NCBI GenBank assembly: GCA_023898625.1
Contig: CP060231.1
Coordinates: 276,258-340,257 of the forward strand
DNA: 64,000 nt
Origin: Candidatus Nomurabacteria bacterium
Lineage (GTDB): Bacteria; Patescibacteriota; Saccharimonadia; Saccharimonadales; JAGQNJ01
Reading direction: 5' to 3'
The notes beneath the pieces were generated by a model that made no database searches, was not told the DNA's origin, and saw only the letters and a list, made by a program, of their open reading frames with translations. Made by a program: the position numbers and the translations under genes. This document shows positions 21,142 to 33,510 of this stretch, in pieces; the stretch's first letter is position 1; each line of letters begins with the position of its first letter.

Positions 21142-22029
21142 TCAAGCATCGGATTGATTTTGGATTGAAGAATGTAAGATACTATCTATAAACTGTTTGG
21201 TAGCATTGGTTGGAATACACATAATCTCACGACCATCCTGCAGGGCACTAACCAACATACCCTCACGAACGACACGTATCTTGTAGTCGCTACCAACTAA
21301 ACCAATCTCTTCTTTGCCCCACGGAACAACATTTAAAACCAACTTTTTCCCTAGGTTAATATCGAGAATAAATTCCCTATCAAACTCATCAGTTCTCGGC
21401 GAATCTTCGCTGGGTAATGTTTCGTGAATTGCAATATCGAATGTTGTTGACTCCCCTACATCATAGTCAATAACACCATATCTGCGAGCAATCAATCGAT
21501 GCTTGGTTTCTAGGTCAATATCAAAAATCCTTGATGCTAGAGTGTACGTATTTGTTTGGGGAGTACTTAAATATTCAATCTGGGTTGGAATCATTCTTGG
21601 ATCTTGCTCAGACTGTGGAATCGGGTATACTCTTGGAAAATCTAGACGTTCTGCTAATTGCTGAGCAGAAAACCCAGGAACCCTAGTGCCAGTACGTGGG
21701 TTAAAATACGTCACTTTGACTGCATTATCTATCCAAAAAACCACATCTTTTGGGCTAACCTGCCATTGATCTGTACAAATCTCAACACCTTGGTCTGGAT
21801 TTGATAACCAAACTCCAGCCCCCGTAAAATCATTAGTATCTGCTGGTAGTCCAGTTATAACAATTCTGTCACCACTATTATTATCAGTAAACACTGAGCA
21901 CTCTTCGTACAAATCAGTGTTAATAACAGCCGGCTCAAGCTCAACGCCTCTTATTTCGCGATATGCTTGAAAGTTATACAGTGTATCAAGCAAATAATCT
22001 TCTGGCTTCTGATGTAACATCTCGCTCAT
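21142..22029 (-). CDS. hypothetical protein
   Basis: 295-aa ORF with no recognisable motif. Co-directional with 22040..22681 and 10 nt from it. Confidence 0.5.
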   Translation of the reverse strand: MSEMLHQKPEDYLLDTLYNFQAYREIRGVELEPAVINTDLYEECSVFTDNNSGDRIVITGLPADTNDFTGAGVWLSNPDQGVEICTDQWQVSPKDVVFWIDNAVKVTYFNPRTGTRVPGFSAQQLAERLDFPRVYPIPQSEQDPRMIPTQIEYLSTPQTNTYTLASRIFDIDLETKHRLIARRYGVIDYDVGESTTFDIAIHETLPSEDSPRTDEFDREFILDINLGKKLVLNVVPWGKEEIGLVGSDYKIRVVREGMLVSALQDGREIMCIPTNATKQFIDSILHSSIQNQSDA

Positions 22030-22039
22030 AATACCCTCG

Positions 22040-22681
22040 CTAGTTCTGTGGGACTATCGCCCACTCGTCAAGTTTTATTATGAGTTCTTCAGCGTAAGCT
22101 CTATCTAGTTGTCGGAGCTGTCTTTTGCTTACTCTATCTTGGGTTGTGCTTGATTGCATTGTTGCCTCTTCAATAGCAGACATTATGTCAATATCATCTA
22201 AAGAATATTCTACTTCTGAATGTAAGTCGCTGAGGTTAGGGAGCCATGCATGAATGCCTTGTTCGTCAATACGGCTATATCGCCACTCTCCTGACTTGCT
22301 CTGATGCGCCACAAAATAACTATCCGTTTTATACGGTAATGTTGAATAATCCTCTAAGAGCGAAGCTACAGCTTCTCTAACAGAACTATACTCATCGTTC
22401 ATTCTTGCCAAAACCCTGATTTTCTCTACACCATAATCTGGCTTCCCGCCACTTTCTGTCAAAAGAACACTGAATAACTTCTCGTCAACTAAAGAGTGAG
22501 TGTCAATCTGCACCAGATCAACGACAGATTTTTGGGGTTTATCTGCCCGGTAGCTTCTAAGTGAGTCATTAAAAGCATCATCAACAACAAAGCCCAGCTG
22601 ATCTACGAGATCAACAAACACTGGACTATCAGGGCCTAGCTCAAAATTACGGGATTCATCAAAACTACTCATCATGTACAA
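22040..22681 (-). CDS. hypothetical acidic protein
   Basis: 213-aa ORF with no recognisable motif. Confidence 0.5.
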   Translation of the reverse strand: MYMMSSFDESRNFELGPDSPVFVDLVDQLGFVVDDAFNDSLRSYRADKPQKSVVDLVQIDTHSLVDEKLFSVLLTESGGKPDYGVEKIRVLARMNDEYSSVREAVASLLEDYSTLPYKTDSYFVAHQSKSGEWRYSRIDEQGIHAWLPNLSDLHSEVEYSLDDIDIMSAIEEATMQSSTTQDRVSKRQLRQLDRAYAEELIIKLDEWAIVPQN

Positions 22682-22719
22682 TTATACAACAAATGTGACT
22701 TAGAAGCAATTGTTTGGTA

Positions 22720-22748
22720 TTGACATTTTTTGATATTTGTGTTTAAAT
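22720..22748 (+). promoter_or_regulatory. sigma70-like promoter for the high-GC ORF
   Basis: TTGACA (22720-22725), 17-nt spacer, TTAAAT (22743-22748). Confidence 0.45.
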
Positions 22749-22782
22749 GAATTGTCCCATTTCCCGACTAACAAGGAGTATG

Positions 22783-23202
22783 ATGGAGACAATCAAGGTA
22801 GATGGCGAAGCCATCGAAGTAGGAGATATCAAGTTCTCCTACACCAACGGCGTTGCGATGGCGCACCTGCCATCGGCCGTCGTTCGTACCTGGCTCCCCG
22901 CCATGTACGAGGTATACGGCTCGCGCGAGTTCTTCTCACGTGAGATCGAATCTTTCCGGGACACCGGAAGGTGGATATCGTTCACATTCGTGAACCACTC
23001 GCTTCAGAGCGAGGTCATGCGTGTGATCGTGTTGCAGTTGGTCGAGCAATCGGCTCAACTCCATCAGGAGCGTGAGCGAGCTCGTTCACGCAAGAACCAT
23101 CCGTCCAACGGACGGAACTTGGTGGTGGCCAACCCTGACCGCTACCATGAGGCTTCGCCTCAGAAGTTCACCAACAAGCCTCCTTTCATGAGGCGTCGGT
23201 GA
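22783..23202 (+). CDS. hypothetical protein, compositionally foreign (high GC)
   Basis: ORF track 22747..23202. Start placed at ATG 22783 (or 22780) after the AAGGAG RBS at 22773-22778. Hand-counted GC is roughly 57%, against about 40% in the flanks. Basic C-terminus. Confidence 0.6.
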   Translation: METIKVDGEAIEVGDIKFSYTNGVAMAHLPSAVVRTWLPAMYEVYGSREFFSREIESFRDTGRWISFTFVNHSLQSEVMRVIVLQLVEQSAQLHQERERARSRKNHPSNGRNLVVANPDRYHEASPQKFTNKPPFMRRR

Positions 23203-23225
23203 GCTAAGATCGCTGGGGGTGACCA

Positions 23226-23280
23226 TGAGGGGTTGCAGGCCGGTTGACAACGTCGTCAACATCAAGGCCTGCGCCCCTCA
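23226..23280 (+). terminator. GC-rich nested stem-loop downstream of the high-GC ORF
   Basis: TGAGGGGTTGCAGGCC pairs imperfectly with GGCCTGCGCCCCTCA. An inner GTTGAC-AACGTC-GTCAAC hairpin sits inside. No U-tract, so terminator function is uncertain. Confidence 0.35.
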
Positions 23281-23401
23281 GGTCGCAAGCGATTAACATC
23301 TACCAACCTGGGCAGTGTGCCACTCTTTCTATTACAGAAATCGAGAAAATCACTGCCCCTAATTCATATTTCATCATTCACACTAAACAGCTTCTTGGCT
23401 G

Positions 23402-24694
23402 TTATTTTTTTAGAACTTTTTTAGTCACATCTATATCACTCCAGGCAATCTTTTTGCCACCCATATTGCGAGTTGTTTGGTGTCCAATACCAGATATTAT
23501 GACCACATCACCCTTCTTGGCATTTTTTAATGCCGACTCAATTGCTTTAGTACGATCAGCATACATGGTGACTTTTGAGCGATAATTCTTCTTAACACCA
23601 CCGTAAACCGCTTGTCTGATTGCCTCAGCATTCTCAGTGTATGTTTCATCATCTGTTAAGTAAACTTTATCTGCGAGCTTGCTAGCTACTTCACCCATTT
23701 TAGGACGCTTTGTTTTGTCACGATCCCCAGTTGCGCCAAACACAATGTGTAACTTGCCCTTCCCTGCTAAATGGCGTGTTGTTGTTAGTACGCTTTCGAT
23801 TGCCCCTGGAGTAACCGCATAATCAATTAAGACATGAAAATTTTGCCCTTCATCAATCGGCATCATTCGACCATTCACATAAGCTAAATTGGCAACTCCT
23901 TTTTCGATATCTTTGGGTGATAAACCAACAATTCGCCCCACAGCCACACCTGCTAGTACGTTATAGACATTAAAACCACCGATTAATGGAGATTTGATTT
24001 TGTAAACATCACCATCTATGGTAGCTAAGAAATTGTTACCTTTTAATGTTGATTCTATTTTCGATGCCCTCAAATCGCCCTTGTTAATTCCGTAGGTTAC
24101 GGCAGTCTGAATATCGTGCTTAAAGTATTCTGCAGACTTGTCATCAGCATTGATAATTCCAGTTTTCAAACCATGTTTATTGGTGTTTGCTAGCTTAAAG
24201 AGTCTTTCTTTTGCTTTACGATAGTTTTCAAAAGTTTCATGATAATCCAGATGCTCTGGGCTCAAGTTTGTTAGCACCGCTAAGGTAAAAGGGATCCCCC
24301 AGACCCGCCGTTGCCACAAAGCATGACTAGAAACTTCTAAAACAAGCCACTCTACACCGTTATTGTTAATTGTTGATATCAAACGATTAAGTTGCTTAGC
24401 ACTCCCTGTGGTCAATTGTGTTGGGTTTTCTTGTTCGCCTTCTCCATCACCAAAATCCACCGAAGCAGTGGTAATCATTGCTGTTTTATGACCCGCACTA
24501 CGCAATATGCTAGCAATCAACATACAAGTCGTTGTTTTGCCATCAGTGCCAGTTACCCCAATAACCTTCAGCTTCTTTGCAGGATACCCTGACTTTTGCT
24601 GGGCAATAATTGCCTCGGCCCAGTGACCATACGGCTCTATGTGCTTAAACGCTCCTTTTGGTATTATTGATTTAACCAGTTTTCGGCTATTCAT
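23402..24694 (-). CDS. murE: Mur ligase family protein, MurE-like (short N-terminus)
   Basis: P-loop GVTGTDGKTTT at about residue 48. Mur ligase middle and C-terminal domains (GDRDKTKRP). Lacks a DNPR motif. Confidence 0.6.
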   Translation of the reverse strand: MNSRKLVKSIIPKGAFKHIEPYGHWAEAIIAQQKSGYPAKKLKVIGVTGTDGKTTTCMLIASILRSAGHKTAMITTASVDFGDGEGEQENPTQLTTGSAKQLNRLISTINNNGVEWLVLEVSSHALWQRRVWGIPFTLAVLTNLSPEHLDYHETFENYRKAKERLFKLANTNKHGLKTGIINADDKSAEYFKHDIQTAVTYGINKGDLRASKIESTLKGNNFLATIDGDVYKIKSPLIGGFNVYNVLAGVAVGRIVGLSPKDIEKGVANLAYVNGRMMPIDEGQNFHVLIDYAVTPGAIESVLTTTRHLAGKGKLHIVFGATGDRDKTKRPKMGEVASKLADKVYLTDDETYTENAEAIRQAVYGGVKKNYRSKVTMYADRTKAIESALKNAKKGDVVIISGIGHQTTRNMGGKKIAWSDIDVTKKVLKK

Positions 24695-24769: not shown

Positions 24770-25831
24770 ATGATTGTTCTGGGAATTGAAAGTAGTTGCG
24801 ATGAAACATCCGTTGGTATTGTTAAAAATGGTGATACATTATTGGCCTGCTCAACTGCTAGCAGTATGAATATCCACGCCAAATATGGTGGTGTAGTACC
24901 AGAGATTGCTGCCCGTGAGCATATTCAAGCCATGACACCTACTCTAAAAGATGCACTTAATCAATCTGGGTTAAACTGGAAAGACATTGACGCCATTGCC
25001 GTTACTAATGGCGCTGGGCTAGGAGGCTCCTTGTTAATCGGGGTATTGACAGCGCGAACCTTGGCAATAACTAAAAATAAACCACTTTACGCCTGCAACC
25101 ATGTCGAGGGTCATGTATATGCCAACTTCTTAACCAAAACGGCGCTATCTGGATACAACCTTCCAAAAAAACAGCCCAACTTCCCTCTTTTGGCGCTTAT
25201 TGTCAGCGGTGGACATACACAACTAGTATTGTTCCAGGATCATTTTAACTACCAACTACTTGGCCAAACTCACGACGACGCGATTGGAGAGGCTTTTGAT
25301 AAAGTAGCTAAAATCCTTGGCCTCCCCTACCCCGGAGGGCCAAGTATCGCAAAATCTGCCAGCGGAGGAAACCCAAATGCCTTGCAATTACCCAAAGCAC
25401 GAATGGAAAACCGTTATGATTTTAGCTTCTCTGGGCTTAAAACAGCCGTTTTAAGGGCGACTCAGAACATTTTGGGTGTAGACCACACTTTTGAAAGTTT
25501 TCGGCTTGCAGAGCGTCTAAATGCCTCTCAGCGCAAAGATATTTCTGCAAGTTTTCAAAGAGTAGCAATAGAAACAGTCGTTGACAAAACACTCGACGCC
25601 TTTCGCACTTATGCCGTAAATAGCGTGGTCATTGCTGGGGGTGTTGCTTCTAACCTTGAGTTACGACATCAGTTATCTGAACGACTACCAATCGATGTTG
25701 AATATACTGATCCAAAACTCTGCACCGATAATGGCGCTATGATTGCTACTCTGGGGTGCTTTAAGATGAAATGTGATCAGCCGACAGCAGACCCTAATTC
25801 CCTAGATATTGAGCCTAATCTCTCGATGTAG
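24770..25831 (+). CDS. tsaD: tRNA N6-adenosine threonylcarbamoyltransferase
   Basis: GIESSCDET N-terminal motif. Kae1/Gcp family length and motifs (HVEGH, SGGHT). Confidence 0.92.
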   Translation: MIVLGIESSCDETSVGIVKNGDTLLACSTASSMNIHAKYGGVVPEIAAREHIQAMTPTLKDALNQSGLNWKDIDAIAVTNGAGLGGSLLIGVLTARTLAITKNKPLYACNHVEGHVYANFLTKTALSGYNLPKKQPNFPLLALIVSGGHTQLVLFQDHFNYQLLGQTHDDAIGEAFDKVAKILGLPYPGGPSIAKSASGGNPNALQLPKARMENRYDFSFSGLKTAVLRATQNILGVDHTFESFRLAERLNASQRKDISASFQRVAIETVVDKTLDAFRTYAVNSVVIAGGVASNLELRHQLSERLPIDVEYTDPKLCTDNGAMIATLGCFKMKCDQPTADPNSLDIEPNLSM

Positions 25832-31004: not shown

Positions 31005-31590
31005 AGTCGATTGAATGAGAGGCTTCAGTCGAATCGAACATTTTTGGTATAAGTGGTAGTAATAAAACTAACTCTAATGTGGTTGAACTCTCTGTTAACA
31101 GATCGAGATCCTACAATAGAGAATGAAGAATACGGTTGAGCACCGCATATTGTATTGATTGCGAAGTTGCTTTTTTGCATTTCCGCACCGCTGGGCACAG
31201 ATTGGAAACTATACACTTCATCTGTTGTATGCAATAACAGTTGTTGAACTACTAGCCACGAAGTACCATCTGCCTCGTTTAACCTGTTTGATAGCTTTAG
31301 CGTTCGATTTCAGAGAGGCTTTCACGGCGCTAAAGCTACCTTCTAGAATGTTGAATAGATAACTTACGAGAACTGATGTATTTATTGGGCATTCTTATTA
31401 AGAAGCGCCCAAGTTCGTTAAAAGCTTTGTTAGTTGTAGGCACGAGAGGTCACTTGTGAAAGATCATTTCTTTTAAATGAAGCCTCTCATTCGGATTAAT
31501 CCCAAGTGGTCTCTTATGTTAATTTACGGAGCTTTTGGGCTCGGTTTTTTGTAGCTACGTTAGAAAAAGCCGGCCCAAAGGCTTCCGATT
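31005..31590 (+). ncRNA. candidate large structured RNA or long structured 5' leader (unclassified); alternative reading is a MITE-like element
   Basis: No ORF over 70 aa. 15-bp perfect long-range complement 31013-31027/31478-31492. 11-bp hairpin 31292-31302/31328-31338. Hairpin 31385-31412. 20-bp interrupted hairpin 31530-31583. Confidence 0.4.
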
Positions 31591-31660
31591 AGTAGGAGAT
31601 CTTTGGGGCGTGCAGCCCGGCAACACCGCCAAACGCACATAAACCATCGGAGGAAAAACG

Positions 31661-32257
31661 ATGGACGTTAAGATCTTGGAAGAGCTTGCCCCCTGGGCGG
31701 GGAAGGTCCCTCCCACGAAGGAGAGTGCGGAAGGAAGCGAGAGCTTCCTGTACCGCGGTACAGTCAGCTACCGGCCGTGGGGCTATGAAGCCCTTCGGCA
31801 AAGGCATTTTCTGGTGATAGTGCCAGAAAATGGCCTGCCGTATGCGGTGGAGTGGGACGATAGTCTCACTCCTGTCGTGGAGGCCTTTATCGCCTCCGGG
31901 GTTGTGGCGCCGATGGCGCCCTCCTACCGCATCTCTCTCGACGACGTGGTCGGGTGGAGAAGAGCATGGGGTTCAGATTGGATCCCAACAAGCCGTGAGG
32001 GCGTATTGCCCATAACGGCATTGCCACAACACGTGGCTGATGCCCTGGACAGGGACGGCGGATGGACAGACATCCGTGTCGTTGGCAATGAAGTGCGGGC
32101 CACCCAGGACTACCGCTCTGGCGGCTCCTGCGGTCGTTCGCAAGAGATGGTCTTCGCTACCTTGAAGACAACCTCCGAAGGAGTGAGGTTCAAGACCACC
32201 GTCCATTCTGTCGCGTATGAGGACAGCCTGGGCAGAAAGAGAGGTACATTCACCTAA
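31661..32257 (+). CDS. hypothetical protein, compositionally foreign (high GC)
   Basis: ATG preceded by a GGAGG RBS (31648-31652). The first 150 nt hand-count to about 59% GC. The antisense ORFs on the other strand are typical high-GC artefacts. Confidence 0.6.
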   Translation: MDVKILEELAPWAGKVPPTKESAEGSESFLYRGTVSYRPWGYEALRQRHFLVIVPENGLPYAVEWDDSLTPVVEAFIASGVVAPMAPSYRISLDDVVGWRRAWGSDWIPTSREGVLPITALPQHVADALDRDGGWTDIRVVGNEVRATQDYRSGGSCGRSQEMVFATLKTTSEGVRFKTTVHSVAYEDSLGRKRGTFT

Positions 32258-32570
32258 AAACAAAAAGGCCTCGCATTAGCCTTACATCACCGCAAACAAT
32301 GCGCCTACAACGGTAAGGCACCGTAAAGAACTATTGCTGTTGCAACCCGGCAACGATAAATCACTCTGTTAGTAATAGCAGACATGAAGCAACCCATGCT
32401 TTGTGAGGGGATTTGCTTGATTCGGCACAAGCTAGAGTGTACGTTCCTGTACAGGGAATATGGCACAATACCGAGGTCATTGTGGTAGACCGCTCTTTAG
32501 AGCAAAGGCCACCCGGTTTTCTCGAATCCCGGATTGTAGCACACTCAGTGCTATGGTAAGTCGAGTTTCA

Positions 32571-32645
32571 CCCCAATCATCGCTCACCAGCTCAGGTGAG
32601 TTCGCTGAACAAGCGATTGATAGATGATTGGGGTATTTTTATTTG
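32571..32645 (+). terminator. branched intrinsic terminator
   Basis: 11-bp closing stem CCCCAATCATC/GATGATTGGGG (32571-32581/32623-32633). It encloses two small hairpins and is followed by TATTTTTATTT. Confidence 0.55.
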
Positions 32646-32649
32646 TGCT

Positions 32650-33510
32650 CTAGTCTTCAAATTCGAGGGCGTTTTTGATGCGTGAAATGCTTTGCTCTGG
32701 GTTATTGCTATTAAACCAAAGCACTTTCCAGCCTTTTTTGCTGGCAGTCATCAAGTTTGGCCGACTGTCGTCTATCAACAGTATTTCTGATGGCTGACAA
32801 TTACTCCGATCTTCTGCTTCCTCATAGATTGCTTCTTCTGGCTTTATTGCTCCGACTTCTGAAGAATCGATAATAACGTCGTAGTTGATATTAGGCACAA
32901 GATTGTGGTCAATTAATTCATTCAAAAATCCGGGCATTATATTGGTCATTAACCCGACATGGTAATTTTCAATAGCCCAAGATAATAAATCGTCCATTCC
33001 CTGAACTAGCTCTACTTCTTCTGTGTAGTACTTAGCCCAGTCAATATTATCTATATTAAGATCATTTGCGAATCGTTTATTAAACTCCTCTATGGATATT
33101 TCACCCCTGCAAACCATATCGTTATGTTGCCAAAAGGCCATTTCTACAACATCTGGCGATAAATCATATTCTTCGCTAATTCGCTCCAGAGCGCGGTGAA
33201 AAAACTGAACCAAACATCCGTTGACGTCAAAATACACAAAACGCACCCCAGATTTACTGACCTTTTTTGGCACAATTGGTGGGAATCCAGAGCCTTGAGA
33301 TTCTGATATACCCAACAGTTCGTTTAAGGTTAACCCAAGCACACTGGCTATCCGTTGAATAGTAAAAATTGACGGAGCCTTAATAGCACCTCGCTCAATC
33401 TTTGCCAGGGTAGAATATGAAATATCTGCTTTTTGGCACAACGTTTGTTGTGTCAATCCTGCCTTTATTCTGGCTTCTTGTAATTGTTTTCCGAGACCCA
33501 CCTCGTCCAT
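32650..33510 (-). CDS. XRE-family HTH domain fused to HAD-like hydrolase domain
   Basis: N-terminal HTH (LTQQTLCQKADISYSTLAKIERG). C-terminal HAD-like motifs (YFDVNGCLV ... LLIDDS). Confidence 0.65.
   Translation of the reverse strand: MDEVGLGKQLQEARIKAGLTQQTLCQKADISYSTLAKIERGAIKAPSIFTIQRIASVLGLTLNELLGISESQGSGFPPIVPKKVSKSGVRFVYFDVNGCLVQFFHRALERISEEYDLSPDVVEMAFWQHNDMVCRGEISIEEFNKRFANDLNIDNIDWAKYYTEEVELVQGMDDLLSWAIENYHVGLMTNIMPGFLNELIDHNLVPNINYDVIIDSSEVGAIKPEEAIYEEAEDRSNCQPSEILLIDDSRPNLMTASKKGWKVLWFNSNNPEQSISRIKNALEFED

Follow-up and report, generated by a model that had tools for sequence, protein, structure and literature searches.

The window analysed here is a stretch of 64,000 nucleotides (nt) from the forward strand of contig CP060231.1 (positions 276,258 to 340,257; assembly GCA_023898625.1, Candidatus Nomurabacteria bacterium, placed by GTDB in the Saccharimonadia), and its subject is a GC-rich gene on the plus strand (22783-23202), encoding a protein of 139 amino acids (aa), whose coding region is packed with conserved hairpins. 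Upstream lie a putative sigma-70-type promoter (22720-22748) and a leader predicted to pair with the start codon (22751-22793); downstream, on the same strand, follow a two-domain structured element in the 3′ untranslated region (UTR; 23206-23360) and an intrinsic terminator (23386-23410). The next gene is convergent and encodes a Mur ligase, as identified by PF08245 and PF02875, in agreement with its earlier designation as MurE-like. A preliminary description had singled out the open reading frame (ORF), its C-terminal end (...KPPFMRRR) and its composition, estimated by eye at ~57% GC in surroundings of ~40%, all of which hold: measured GC is 0.562 (0.56, 0.41 and 0.707 at the three codon positions, GC1, GC2 and GC3), against 0.402 for the whole window, and the raised GC forms an island at ~22800-23300. 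Background GC3, taken over the window's 51 longest non-overlapping ORFs, is 0.34 ± 0.06 and the highest ordinary gene reaches 0.44; the only outliers are 22783-23202 and a second ORF at 31661-32257.

The ORF at 22783-23202 is a real, conserved protein-coding gene. None of the 12 small homolog clusters, the most distant at 27% identity, has a broken frame; indels among the homologs measure 6 and 18 nt, multiples of three; and start codon, ribosome-binding site and promoter are conserved. The ratio of nonsynonymous to synonymous substitution rates (dN/dS) is 0.22-0.28 in five of six pairs and 0.61 in the sixth (L001-L006; homologous loci are given here by L numbers). These features accord with the earlier suggestion that the gene is expressed, as it probably is. 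The AlphaFold2 model, uninformative with 6 sequences (predicted local distance difference test, pLDDT, 54), reaches pLDDT 81 and a predicted template modelling score (pTM) of 0.67 with 17, and this climb with alignment depth points to a co-evolving protein fold. A structured non-coding RNA of ~650 nt, carrying the ORF as an incidental feature, would suit the folding of the whole transcript (z-score -12.8) and the covarying hairpins found throughout it, and GC-rich islands in AT-rich genomes are often RNA genes; against the intact frame and its in-frame indels, a dN/dS of ~0.25, the conserved ribosome-binding site and ATG, and the improvement of the protein model, this alternative is nevertheless highly improbable. 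The ribosome-binding site, AAGGAG (22773-22778), stands 4 nt upstream of the ATG at 22783. In the public gene call (cluster P0001, 151 aa) the start is placed at the ATG at 22747, overlapping the -10 box; the homologs, the AAGGAG site and a conserved METI start argue for 22783, so that the deposited start is probably 12 codons too early.

What escaped the preliminary description is that the coding region is itself packed with hairpins, and that the other GC-rich ORF shares this property. The minimum free energy of the coding region is -192.4 kcal/mol, compared with -143 kcal/mol in dinucleotide-preserving shuffles (z -8.3; z -6.9 in a second run). By the same measure, z ranges from -3.4 to -8.9 in eight other homolog ORFs and is -4.7 and -1.2 in two further homologs (L154 and L152, respectively), while eight segments of neighbouring genes lie between +1.1 and -1.5. 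A stricter null model, in which synonymous codons were shuffled among positions encoding the same amino acid, preserving the protein, its codon usage and its GC3, yields z -7.8 for the window gene, -6.0, -11.6, -6.3, -2.8 and -3.8 for five homologs, and +0.4 to -1.2 for controls. Shuffles of equal composition served as the reference, so the excess cannot be put down to GC content. When all 64 kb were scanned in 200-nt segments, the mean z was -0.32 ± 1.36 and runs of z < -3.5 appeared only at 22701-23500 and 31401-32200; elsewhere only three single segments fell below z -3.5, two of them over tRNA genes and the third within the ValRS gene.

Comparison among homologs identifies the pairs concerned. 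RNAalifold, applied to eight ORFs, recovers 15 helices with 124 pairs, in which 91.3% of cells are paired, compared with 30-43% when the partners are slid, and 25 pairs have changed on both sides, compared with 12.8 ± 2.4 after shuffling (0 of 500 shuffles as high). The structure is read as plus-strand RNA because G·U outnumbers A·C in these pairs by 119 to 31. Covariation, the G·U asymmetry and the synonymous-codon shuffles together reveal conserved base-pairing on the sense strand, and show an arrangement of synonymous codons that lets the coding region fold into about 15 hairpins, conserved with compensatory changes. In seven of the eight sequences, paired columns exceed unpaired ones in GC at every codon position (L011 shows the opposite at position 3); in the window gene, third-position GC is 0.76 in paired and 0.62 in unpaired columns.

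Homologs of the protein were sought by a word-indexed search, which returned seven close clusters (71-100% identity), followed by a full HMMER scan of 1.84 billion representative proteins, in which 13 sequences matched: 12 genuine members (136-171 aa, aligning end to end) and one false positive. The latter (P0018), considered as a distant relative, is a eukaryotic protein of 2018 aa with 14 SEA domains, each repeat of which scores below zero on a broader profile, and its match was dismissed as repeat-inflated. The protein family is new, absent from Pfam and PDB. Searches of Pfam, NCBIfam, PHROG and PADLOC with the window protein gave nothing below E 0.01 (best 0.064), the 17 family members reached at best E 0.034 against Pfam, the best sequence-profile match in PDB had E 0.57, and Foldseek comparison of the 17-sequence model gave nothing significant (best E 0.084 in PDB, 0.019 in BFVD), so that the protein remains, as at first sight, without a recognised family. 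The top PDB matches by Foldseek, an Rpb11/AC19-like RNA polymerase subunit and a DCoH-like protein, were rejected as generic two-layer alpha/beta sandwiches (E about 0.1, template modelling scores 0.3-0.5). The fold predicted by AlphaFold2 for residues 1-105 comprises four strands, two helices, two strands and one long helix. The alpha/beta core is acidic (residues 1-95; isoelectric point, pI, 5.2) and the tail disordered and basic (residues 96-139; pI 11.7), with the conserved motifs RSRxxHPSxG, NPDRYH and NxPPxxRRR; no transmembrane segment was found in the 139-aa protein (grand average of hydropathy -0.59; maximum Kyte-Doolittle value over 19 residues 0.96). In L011 (protein P0006), an 18-nt insertion at ~2600-2620 produces HPSNG-LANGLAN-G in the linker before the LVV(V/T) block, an instance of in-frame repeats being tolerated by the tail linker.

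The genomic setting of the family is stable on one side. Wherever the flank suffices, the gene is divergent from two genes, here called p213 and p295, beyond which lie groES and groEL, and this neighbourhood holds from 100% down to 38% protein identity (L154). The right-hand neighbour differs, being the Mur ligase gene in the window's clade and a co-directional gene in L019 and L154. Both reference-genome matches are metagenome-assembled genomes labelled Candidatus Saccharibacteria, and every homolog locus with a taxon label or sufficient flank has a Saccharibacteria-like context. The gene had been called an orphan, a term that does not survive the finding of syntenic homologs with similarly high GC3 in related Candidatus Saccharibacteria, from 100% to 38% identity; judged by sequence and gene order, it is a chromosomal gene specific to one Candidatus Saccharibacteria lineage and apparently inherited vertically within it. 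Misassembly and contamination, about which the preliminary description had been cautious, are ruled out by identical junctions in more than 20 independent assemblies (ENA, Logan, NCBI, JGI): an assembly chimera could appeal only to the sharp compositional break, is refuted by the identical arrangement in so many assemblies, and retains a negligible probability. Five of the homolog loci (L019, L021, L022, L152, L153) were recovered only on short contigs (668-1133 nt) ending near the gene, and the many distant members on such contigs point to frequent assembly breaks at this GC-rich, variable locus.

High GC is a property of the family. Four orthologs have GC3 of 0.66-0.71, with 0.31-0.36 in the genes next to them, and six more distant homologs have 0.49-0.85, with flank GC of 0.29-0.46; GC3 is raised (0.49-0.85) in all nine homolog ORFs examined at the DNA level. 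At 27-55% protein identity synonymous sites should be saturated, which should leave GC3 at a local equilibrium. When substitutions in the ORF are polarised, they come close to compositional balance, with 153 from A or T to G or C (weak to strong, W>S) and 189 in the reverse direction (S>W), a ratio of 0.81; the flank regime would give ~0.2-0.55 as estimated from GC values, a comparison that is indicative, with overlapping triplets and no formal test. Third-position GC kept across the family, at or near compositional balance, shows that the high GC is maintained in place and is not a residue of foreign DNA.

This bears on the idea of a horizontally acquired high-GC gene, from an actinobacterial host or a phage, drifting toward the composition of the genome, a reading implied by the preliminary description. 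Saccharibacteria live on high-GC Actinomycetota, and the contrast in GC3 (0.71 against 0.34 ± 0.06), its sharp boundaries and the lack of a known family all invite such a reading. The gene, however, occupies the same syntenic position behind the same conserved AT-rich promoter in relatives down to 38% identity; the homolog loci that can be examined are all Saccharibacteria-like; its substitutions are near balance rather than decaying; and its fold excess holds against shuffles of its own composition. Phage and plasmid collections gave no protein match, phages no DNA match, and high-GC organisms no homolog. With neither a patchy or shifting location, nor donor homologs, nor a decaying composition found, the acquired island is largely refuted, and we regard it as very improbable.

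Exchange between Saccharibacteria lineages is another matter: the 5′ half of the coding sequence (22790-23000, plus strand) emerges from identity profiles, quartet sites and synonymous divergence (dS) as a hypervariable mosaic. Identity to close relatives is 0.76-0.85 in this segment, compared with 0.95-1.0 in the flanks, and identity to the distant L006 is 0.78-0.89, compared with 0.5-0.7 in the left flank. Quartet-informative sites split 10/6/4 in the 5′ half of the ORF, in short alternating blocks, and 60/5/4 in the flanks. Relative to L001, the flanks are 98% identical (dS 0.05) and the ORF 89% (dS 0.28); relative to L006, the flanks are 61-81% identical (dS > 1.2) and the ORF 82% (dS 0.49). 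Divergence of the ORF that disagrees with the flanks in both directions, together with the split quartet sites, indicates that alleles have been exchanged between lineages, while promoter, leader and 3′ element have stayed nearly constant. Saccharibacteria are naturally transformable, and a recombination hotspot with GC-biased gene conversion could have raised GC3, as a contributing or alternative cause of the high GC, with the hairpins secondary or themselves recombinogenic. The mosaic and the discordant divergence agree with this explanation, as do the high GC3 at unpaired sites, the high GC3 of L152 in which the coding region lacks excess structure, and the near-balance of substitutions at high GC. 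It leaves unexplained, however, the compensatory changes, the G·U asymmetry and the z-scores against synonymous shuffles that keep GC3; the equally GC-rich 3′ UTR is highly conserved and not mosaic; and the rise in GC ends sharply at promoter and terminator, which are transcript boundaries. As an account of the locus, gene conversion appears unlikely.

The promoter and ribosome-binding site stand as first described. A -35 element, TTGACA (22720-22725), is followed by a 17-nt spacer and an extended -10 element, TGnTTAAAT (22740-22748; the TG extension at 22740-22741 and TTAAAT at 22743-22748). From its sequence and conservation, the region 22720-22748 would be expected to act as a sigma-70-type promoter: it is entirely invariant among close orthologs, and TGnTTAAAT is retained in the distant L019, L152 and L154. 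A consensus promoter scan demands A at position 2 of the -10 element, and TTAAAT was missed for that reason.

About where transcription should start, 4-8 nt past the -10 element, begins a block, UUGUCCCAU, that is kept in all 12 homolog sequences examined, although the loop after it is variable. In local folds, leader positions 22751-22760, (A)UUGUCCCAU, pair with AUGG-A-GACAA(U) at 22783-22793, forming a 5′-terminal stem-loop whose target strand is made up of the AUG and codons 2-4 and whose loop holds the AAGGAG site. Local minimum-free-energy folding yields this stem in 12 of 12 homologs, and codon 3 is ACA in 11 of them, despite the gene's bias toward G/C-ending codons; 93.5% of cells in the stem are paired, compared with 23-51% when the partners are slid. 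The calculated pairing probability of the start codon is 0.997, the region from -40 to +30 folds at -14.9 kcal/mol, and the motif is single-copy in the window. The leader-AUG stem is thus predicted to sequester the initiation region in each of the 12 homologs.

The structured element of the 3′ UTR (23206-23360, plus strand) has two domains, in both of which the preliminary description had seen inverted repeats. Domain 1 contains AGAUCGCUGGGGG and a closing stem (23208-23214/23291-23297) that encloses an irregular hairpin of ~27 bp (23219-23285); the nested repeats earlier placed at 23226-23280 are real and longer than thought, their closing stem reaching out to 23208-23297. In domain 2, GCAG...CUGC closes a hairpin that has an inner stem-loop, and the stem earlier located at about 23309-23358 consists of GGGCAGTG (23310-23317) paired with CACTGCCC (23351-23358). 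Compared with dinucleotide-preserving shuffles, the 201 nt past the stop codon have a folding z of -6.6, and the two-domain architecture recurs when the window, L019, L020, L152 and L154 are folded independently. Every relative is 0.88-0.98 identical over 23204-23300, including L006, whose left-flank genes reach only 0.5-0.7. Searched with a covariance model (R1), the window yields a single copy, at 23206-23360, and each of ten lineages one (E 4.5e-42 to 4.6e-11); 18 pairs have changed on both sides, compared with 7.1 ± 2.0 after shuffling, 84.8% of cells are paired, compared with ~40% when slid, and in L001 one helix has a compensatory insertion in its two strands. At the gathering threshold, Rfam recognises only four tRNAs in the window, and ARAGORN finds no tmRNA; at relaxed thresholds, the best Rfam matches in 22600-23500 have E > 1 and five homolog loci have none. 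The 3′ UTR motif is therefore new, absent from Rfam and now represented by a working covariance model.

Beyond the element, a terminator scan places an intrinsic terminator (stem AACAGCU/GGCUGUU at 23386-23403, followed by a T-run to 23410) overlapping the convergent Mur ligase gene at its stop codon and conserved in homologs, including L019 and L154 with their different downstream gene. Element and terminator are kept in all ten lineages with a 3′ flank, and two further homolog contigs end before them. Just past domain 2, at 23363-23371, lies U(U/C)CAU, a block that complements AUGGA in the start region; most close relatives have it, and in distant ones it is hard to make out. In the full-length fold it pairs with the ribosome-binding/AUG region, a possible competing long-range interaction that appears by eye to be only partly conserved. 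An exact-pattern scan for the 3′ hairpin gave zero matches in viral and metagenome contigs, and a gapped pattern joining leader and 3′ motif gave 120 + 9 loci in public collections, none of which encodes a family member by tblastn; these were set aside as chance matches.

The second GC-rich ORF of the window (31661-32257; 198 aa, GC 0.59, GC3 0.68), lying in an island at 31400-32700, offers an independent comparison. Its protein is unrelated to the 139-aa family (hhalign probability 0.2%), as visual inspection had indicated, and has only one homolog cluster, at 95% identity. Its coding region folds with z -6.4 against dinucleotide shuffles and -5.3 against synonymous-codon shuffles, its AUG lies in a hairpin, CCAUCG-GAGGAAAAA-CGAUGG (31644-31664), with the ribosome-binding site in the loop, and the downstream non-coding sequence (32258-32640) is also structured (z -4.4), with no Rfam family match. 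That a hairpin-packed coding sequence with a locked AUG occurs twice suggests a principle of design and not the peculiarity of a single gene.

These features suggest to us, tentatively and with a chance somewhat short of even, a long-lived mRNA whose translation is gated by structure, in a gene of a Saccharibacteria lineage. The transcription unit (~22752-23410) would have evolved as a compact, very stable folded RNA. In bacteria, a paired 5′ end, dense coding structure, large 3′ hairpins and a terminator slow 5′- and 3′-dependent decay; here, the mRNA would be made from a strong promoter, and its paired ends and dense structure would shield it from both classes of RNase. Translation would be poor until the stem that locks the AUG opens, whether by heat or stress, by RNA processing or by a binding factor, and a heat or stress cue would fit the conserved position adjoining groES-groEL. 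The near-perfect 3′ hairpin (~27-34 bp) is long enough for RNase III and is a candidate site for RNase III or decay control, or alternatively a candidate binding site for the basic tail of the protein.

Several observations weigh against a gated, long-lived mRNA. Both gating and stability are deduced from predicted structure. The 5′ stem shows no covariation, as both its strands are nearly invariant, and by the same simple calculation ~16% of ordinary window genes also have AUG pairing above 0.9, so that the argument for the stem rests on its conservation and not on any single fold; moreover, the full-length fold, unlike the local ones, pairs the ribosome-binding region with the 3′ end. The covariation draws on 8-10 related sequences, and the alignment of the 3′ UTR, having been fitted to the R1 model, leans toward the structure of that model. 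Unpaired third codon positions still have ~0.6 GC, and L152, the most divergent homolog examined, combines a GC3 of 0.85 with no excess structure in its coding region (z -0.8 and -1.2); codon-arranged structure is hence not the sole force behind the high GC. The ORF of L152 (130-549; protein P0017) stands out from an upstream flank of 0.30, and its RNA still has a low absolute folding energy, given by its high GC; leader motif and 3′ UTR element are retained. GC-richness and codon-arranged structure can evidently be uncoupled.

Much of the same evidence could describe a dual-function RNA or ribonucleoprotein, in which the transcript, chiefly its 3′ element, is a processed small RNA, or the RNA partner or autoregulatory operator of the basic-tailed protein, and the coding hairpins serve that RNA role instead of mRNA stability. 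The 3′ element covaries and has diverged less than most of the sequence around it; AGAUCGCUGGGGG and UUGUCCCAU are preserved at the level of sequence itself, as is usual for protein-binding or processing sites; the tail (pI 11.7, disordered) carries conserved motifs; and protein and RNA element occur together in every homolog locus long enough to hold both. Such a role overlaps and is compatible with a structure-gated, long-lived mRNA. We think it rather unlikely as the principal explanation, as no evidence of processing or of a separate promoter was found, the predicted fold has no recognisable RNA-binding domain, and the element has no Rfam match, is single-copy and has no candidate target identified. 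A bolder proposal is that Saccharibacteria carry an unrecognised class of GC-rich, hairpin-packed coding RNAs whose composition and structure are under selection because the RNA itself is functional cargo: the mRNA may be packaged by its own basic-tailed protein, or may persist outside the cell, reach the high-GC actinobacterial host and be translated there. Such cargo would account for host-like G/C-ending codons being kept in an AT-rich epibiont, and the genome does contain at least two unrelated hairpin-packed GC-rich ORFs; delivery itself is speculative, and we consider the proposal quite improbable.

Several known systems resemble a structure-gated, long-lived mRNA in part. Type I toxin mRNAs are strongly transcribed and very stable, and their translation needs structural change or processing; the locus resembles those of hok/sok (plasmid R1) and aapA1/isoA1 (Helicobacter pylori) in its predicted locked initiation region and structured ends. 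It differs in encoding a soluble 139-aa alpha/beta protein with a basic tail in place of a membrane peptide of <60 aa, and in structure that spans the whole 420-nt coding region. A type I toxin was rejected, as there is no small hydrophobic peptide or transmembrane helix and a soluble fold is predicted for the 139 aa; a crude consensus scan of 22700-23420 found no minus-strand promoter-like site from which an antisense RNA could arise. The mRNA thermosensors (rpoH of E. coli; the ROSE and fourU elements) likewise hold a start codon in a stem with early coding sequence, and the present gene adjoins a heat-shock chaperone operon in conserved synteny. RNA thermometers are usually marginally stable, in contrast to the GC-rich stem found here (-14.9 kcal/mol for -40 to +30), and no ROSE or fourU match was obtained with Rfam. 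The sib element, an RNase III hairpin downstream of lambda int that controls 3′-to-5′ decay, is matched by the long, near-perfect hairpin just past the stop codon; the present element differs in its second conserved domain and conserved single-stranded blocks. The genomes of single-stranded RNA phages (Leviviricetes, such as MS2) share with it hairpins throughout the coding RNA, predicted fold-controlled initiation and a small basic-tailed protein; this, however, is a chromosomal DNA gene with a sigma-70-type promoter, no viral fold in BFVD matches its protein significantly, and no replicase gene occurs among the called genes and ORFs immediately flanking it.

GC-rich structured RNAs have been found in intergenic regions of AT-rich bacteria by the GC/length screens of the Breaker laboratory (PMC6429828, PMC11109978), the second of which does not mention Saccharibacteria or Patescibacteria. 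The locus resembles these RNAs in its GC-rich island in an AT-rich genome and in a 3′ UTR motif supported by covariation, and differs in that the structured region is mostly coding and has no Rfam match. In the literature on structured RNAs and GC-rich genes of Saccharibacteria and Patescibacteria, nothing was found on this locus or on the phenomenon. Other element classes were considered and rejected. An integron attC site is a poor match, as the GTTGACA/GTCAAC hairpin misfits RYYYAAC/GTTRRRY, is single-copy in the window and has no integrase among the flanking genes; an IS200/IS605 element would call for features that are absent, there being no PF01797 match, no HUH motif in conserved columns and a single syntenic copy; and smpB-ssrA is excluded by the lack of a PF01668 match and of a tmRNA in the ARAGORN and Rfam searches. 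A retron, a levivirus coat gene and a palindromic GC-cluster mobile element each fail for want of the defining protein, motif or copy number.

In AT-rich, reduced genomes, a GC-rich island is routinely taken for foreign DNA, an RNA gene or an assembly error. The present case points to a fourth possibility, a native coding gene whose synonymous sites have been taken over by selection on RNA folding, which would have doubled GC3 in a way that persists across deep divergence. Detectors of horizontal gene transfer based on composition would flag this gene though it is not foreign, a reason for caution in their use. The locus brings together a new protein family, a new 3′ UTR motif with its covariance model and a conserved 5′ stem predicted to lock the AUG, all adjoining a chaperone operon. 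To our knowledge, very few regulatory RNAs have been characterised in Saccharibacteria; if gating by stress proved true, this would rank among the earliest post-transcriptional switches reported from the Candidate Phyla Radiation, and an RNA cargo or ribonucleoprotein, if real, would bear on the interaction of epibiont and host.

Two further features of the neighbourhood may be recorded. The genes p213 (22040-22675) and p295 (21142-22029), on the minus strand upstream of groES-groEL, encode acidic, lineage-specific proteins with no match in Pfam, NCBIfam, PADLOC or PDB, and p213 belongs to a family of 8 clusters, as narrow as that of the 139-aa protein. On the other side, tsaD is split in L001 (7993-9034; 152 + 200 aa) and L005 (7988-9059; 244 + 68 aa), through assembly frameshift errors or as pseudogenes, and is intact, at 353 aa, in the window (equivalent positions 24770-25831) and in L002-L004.

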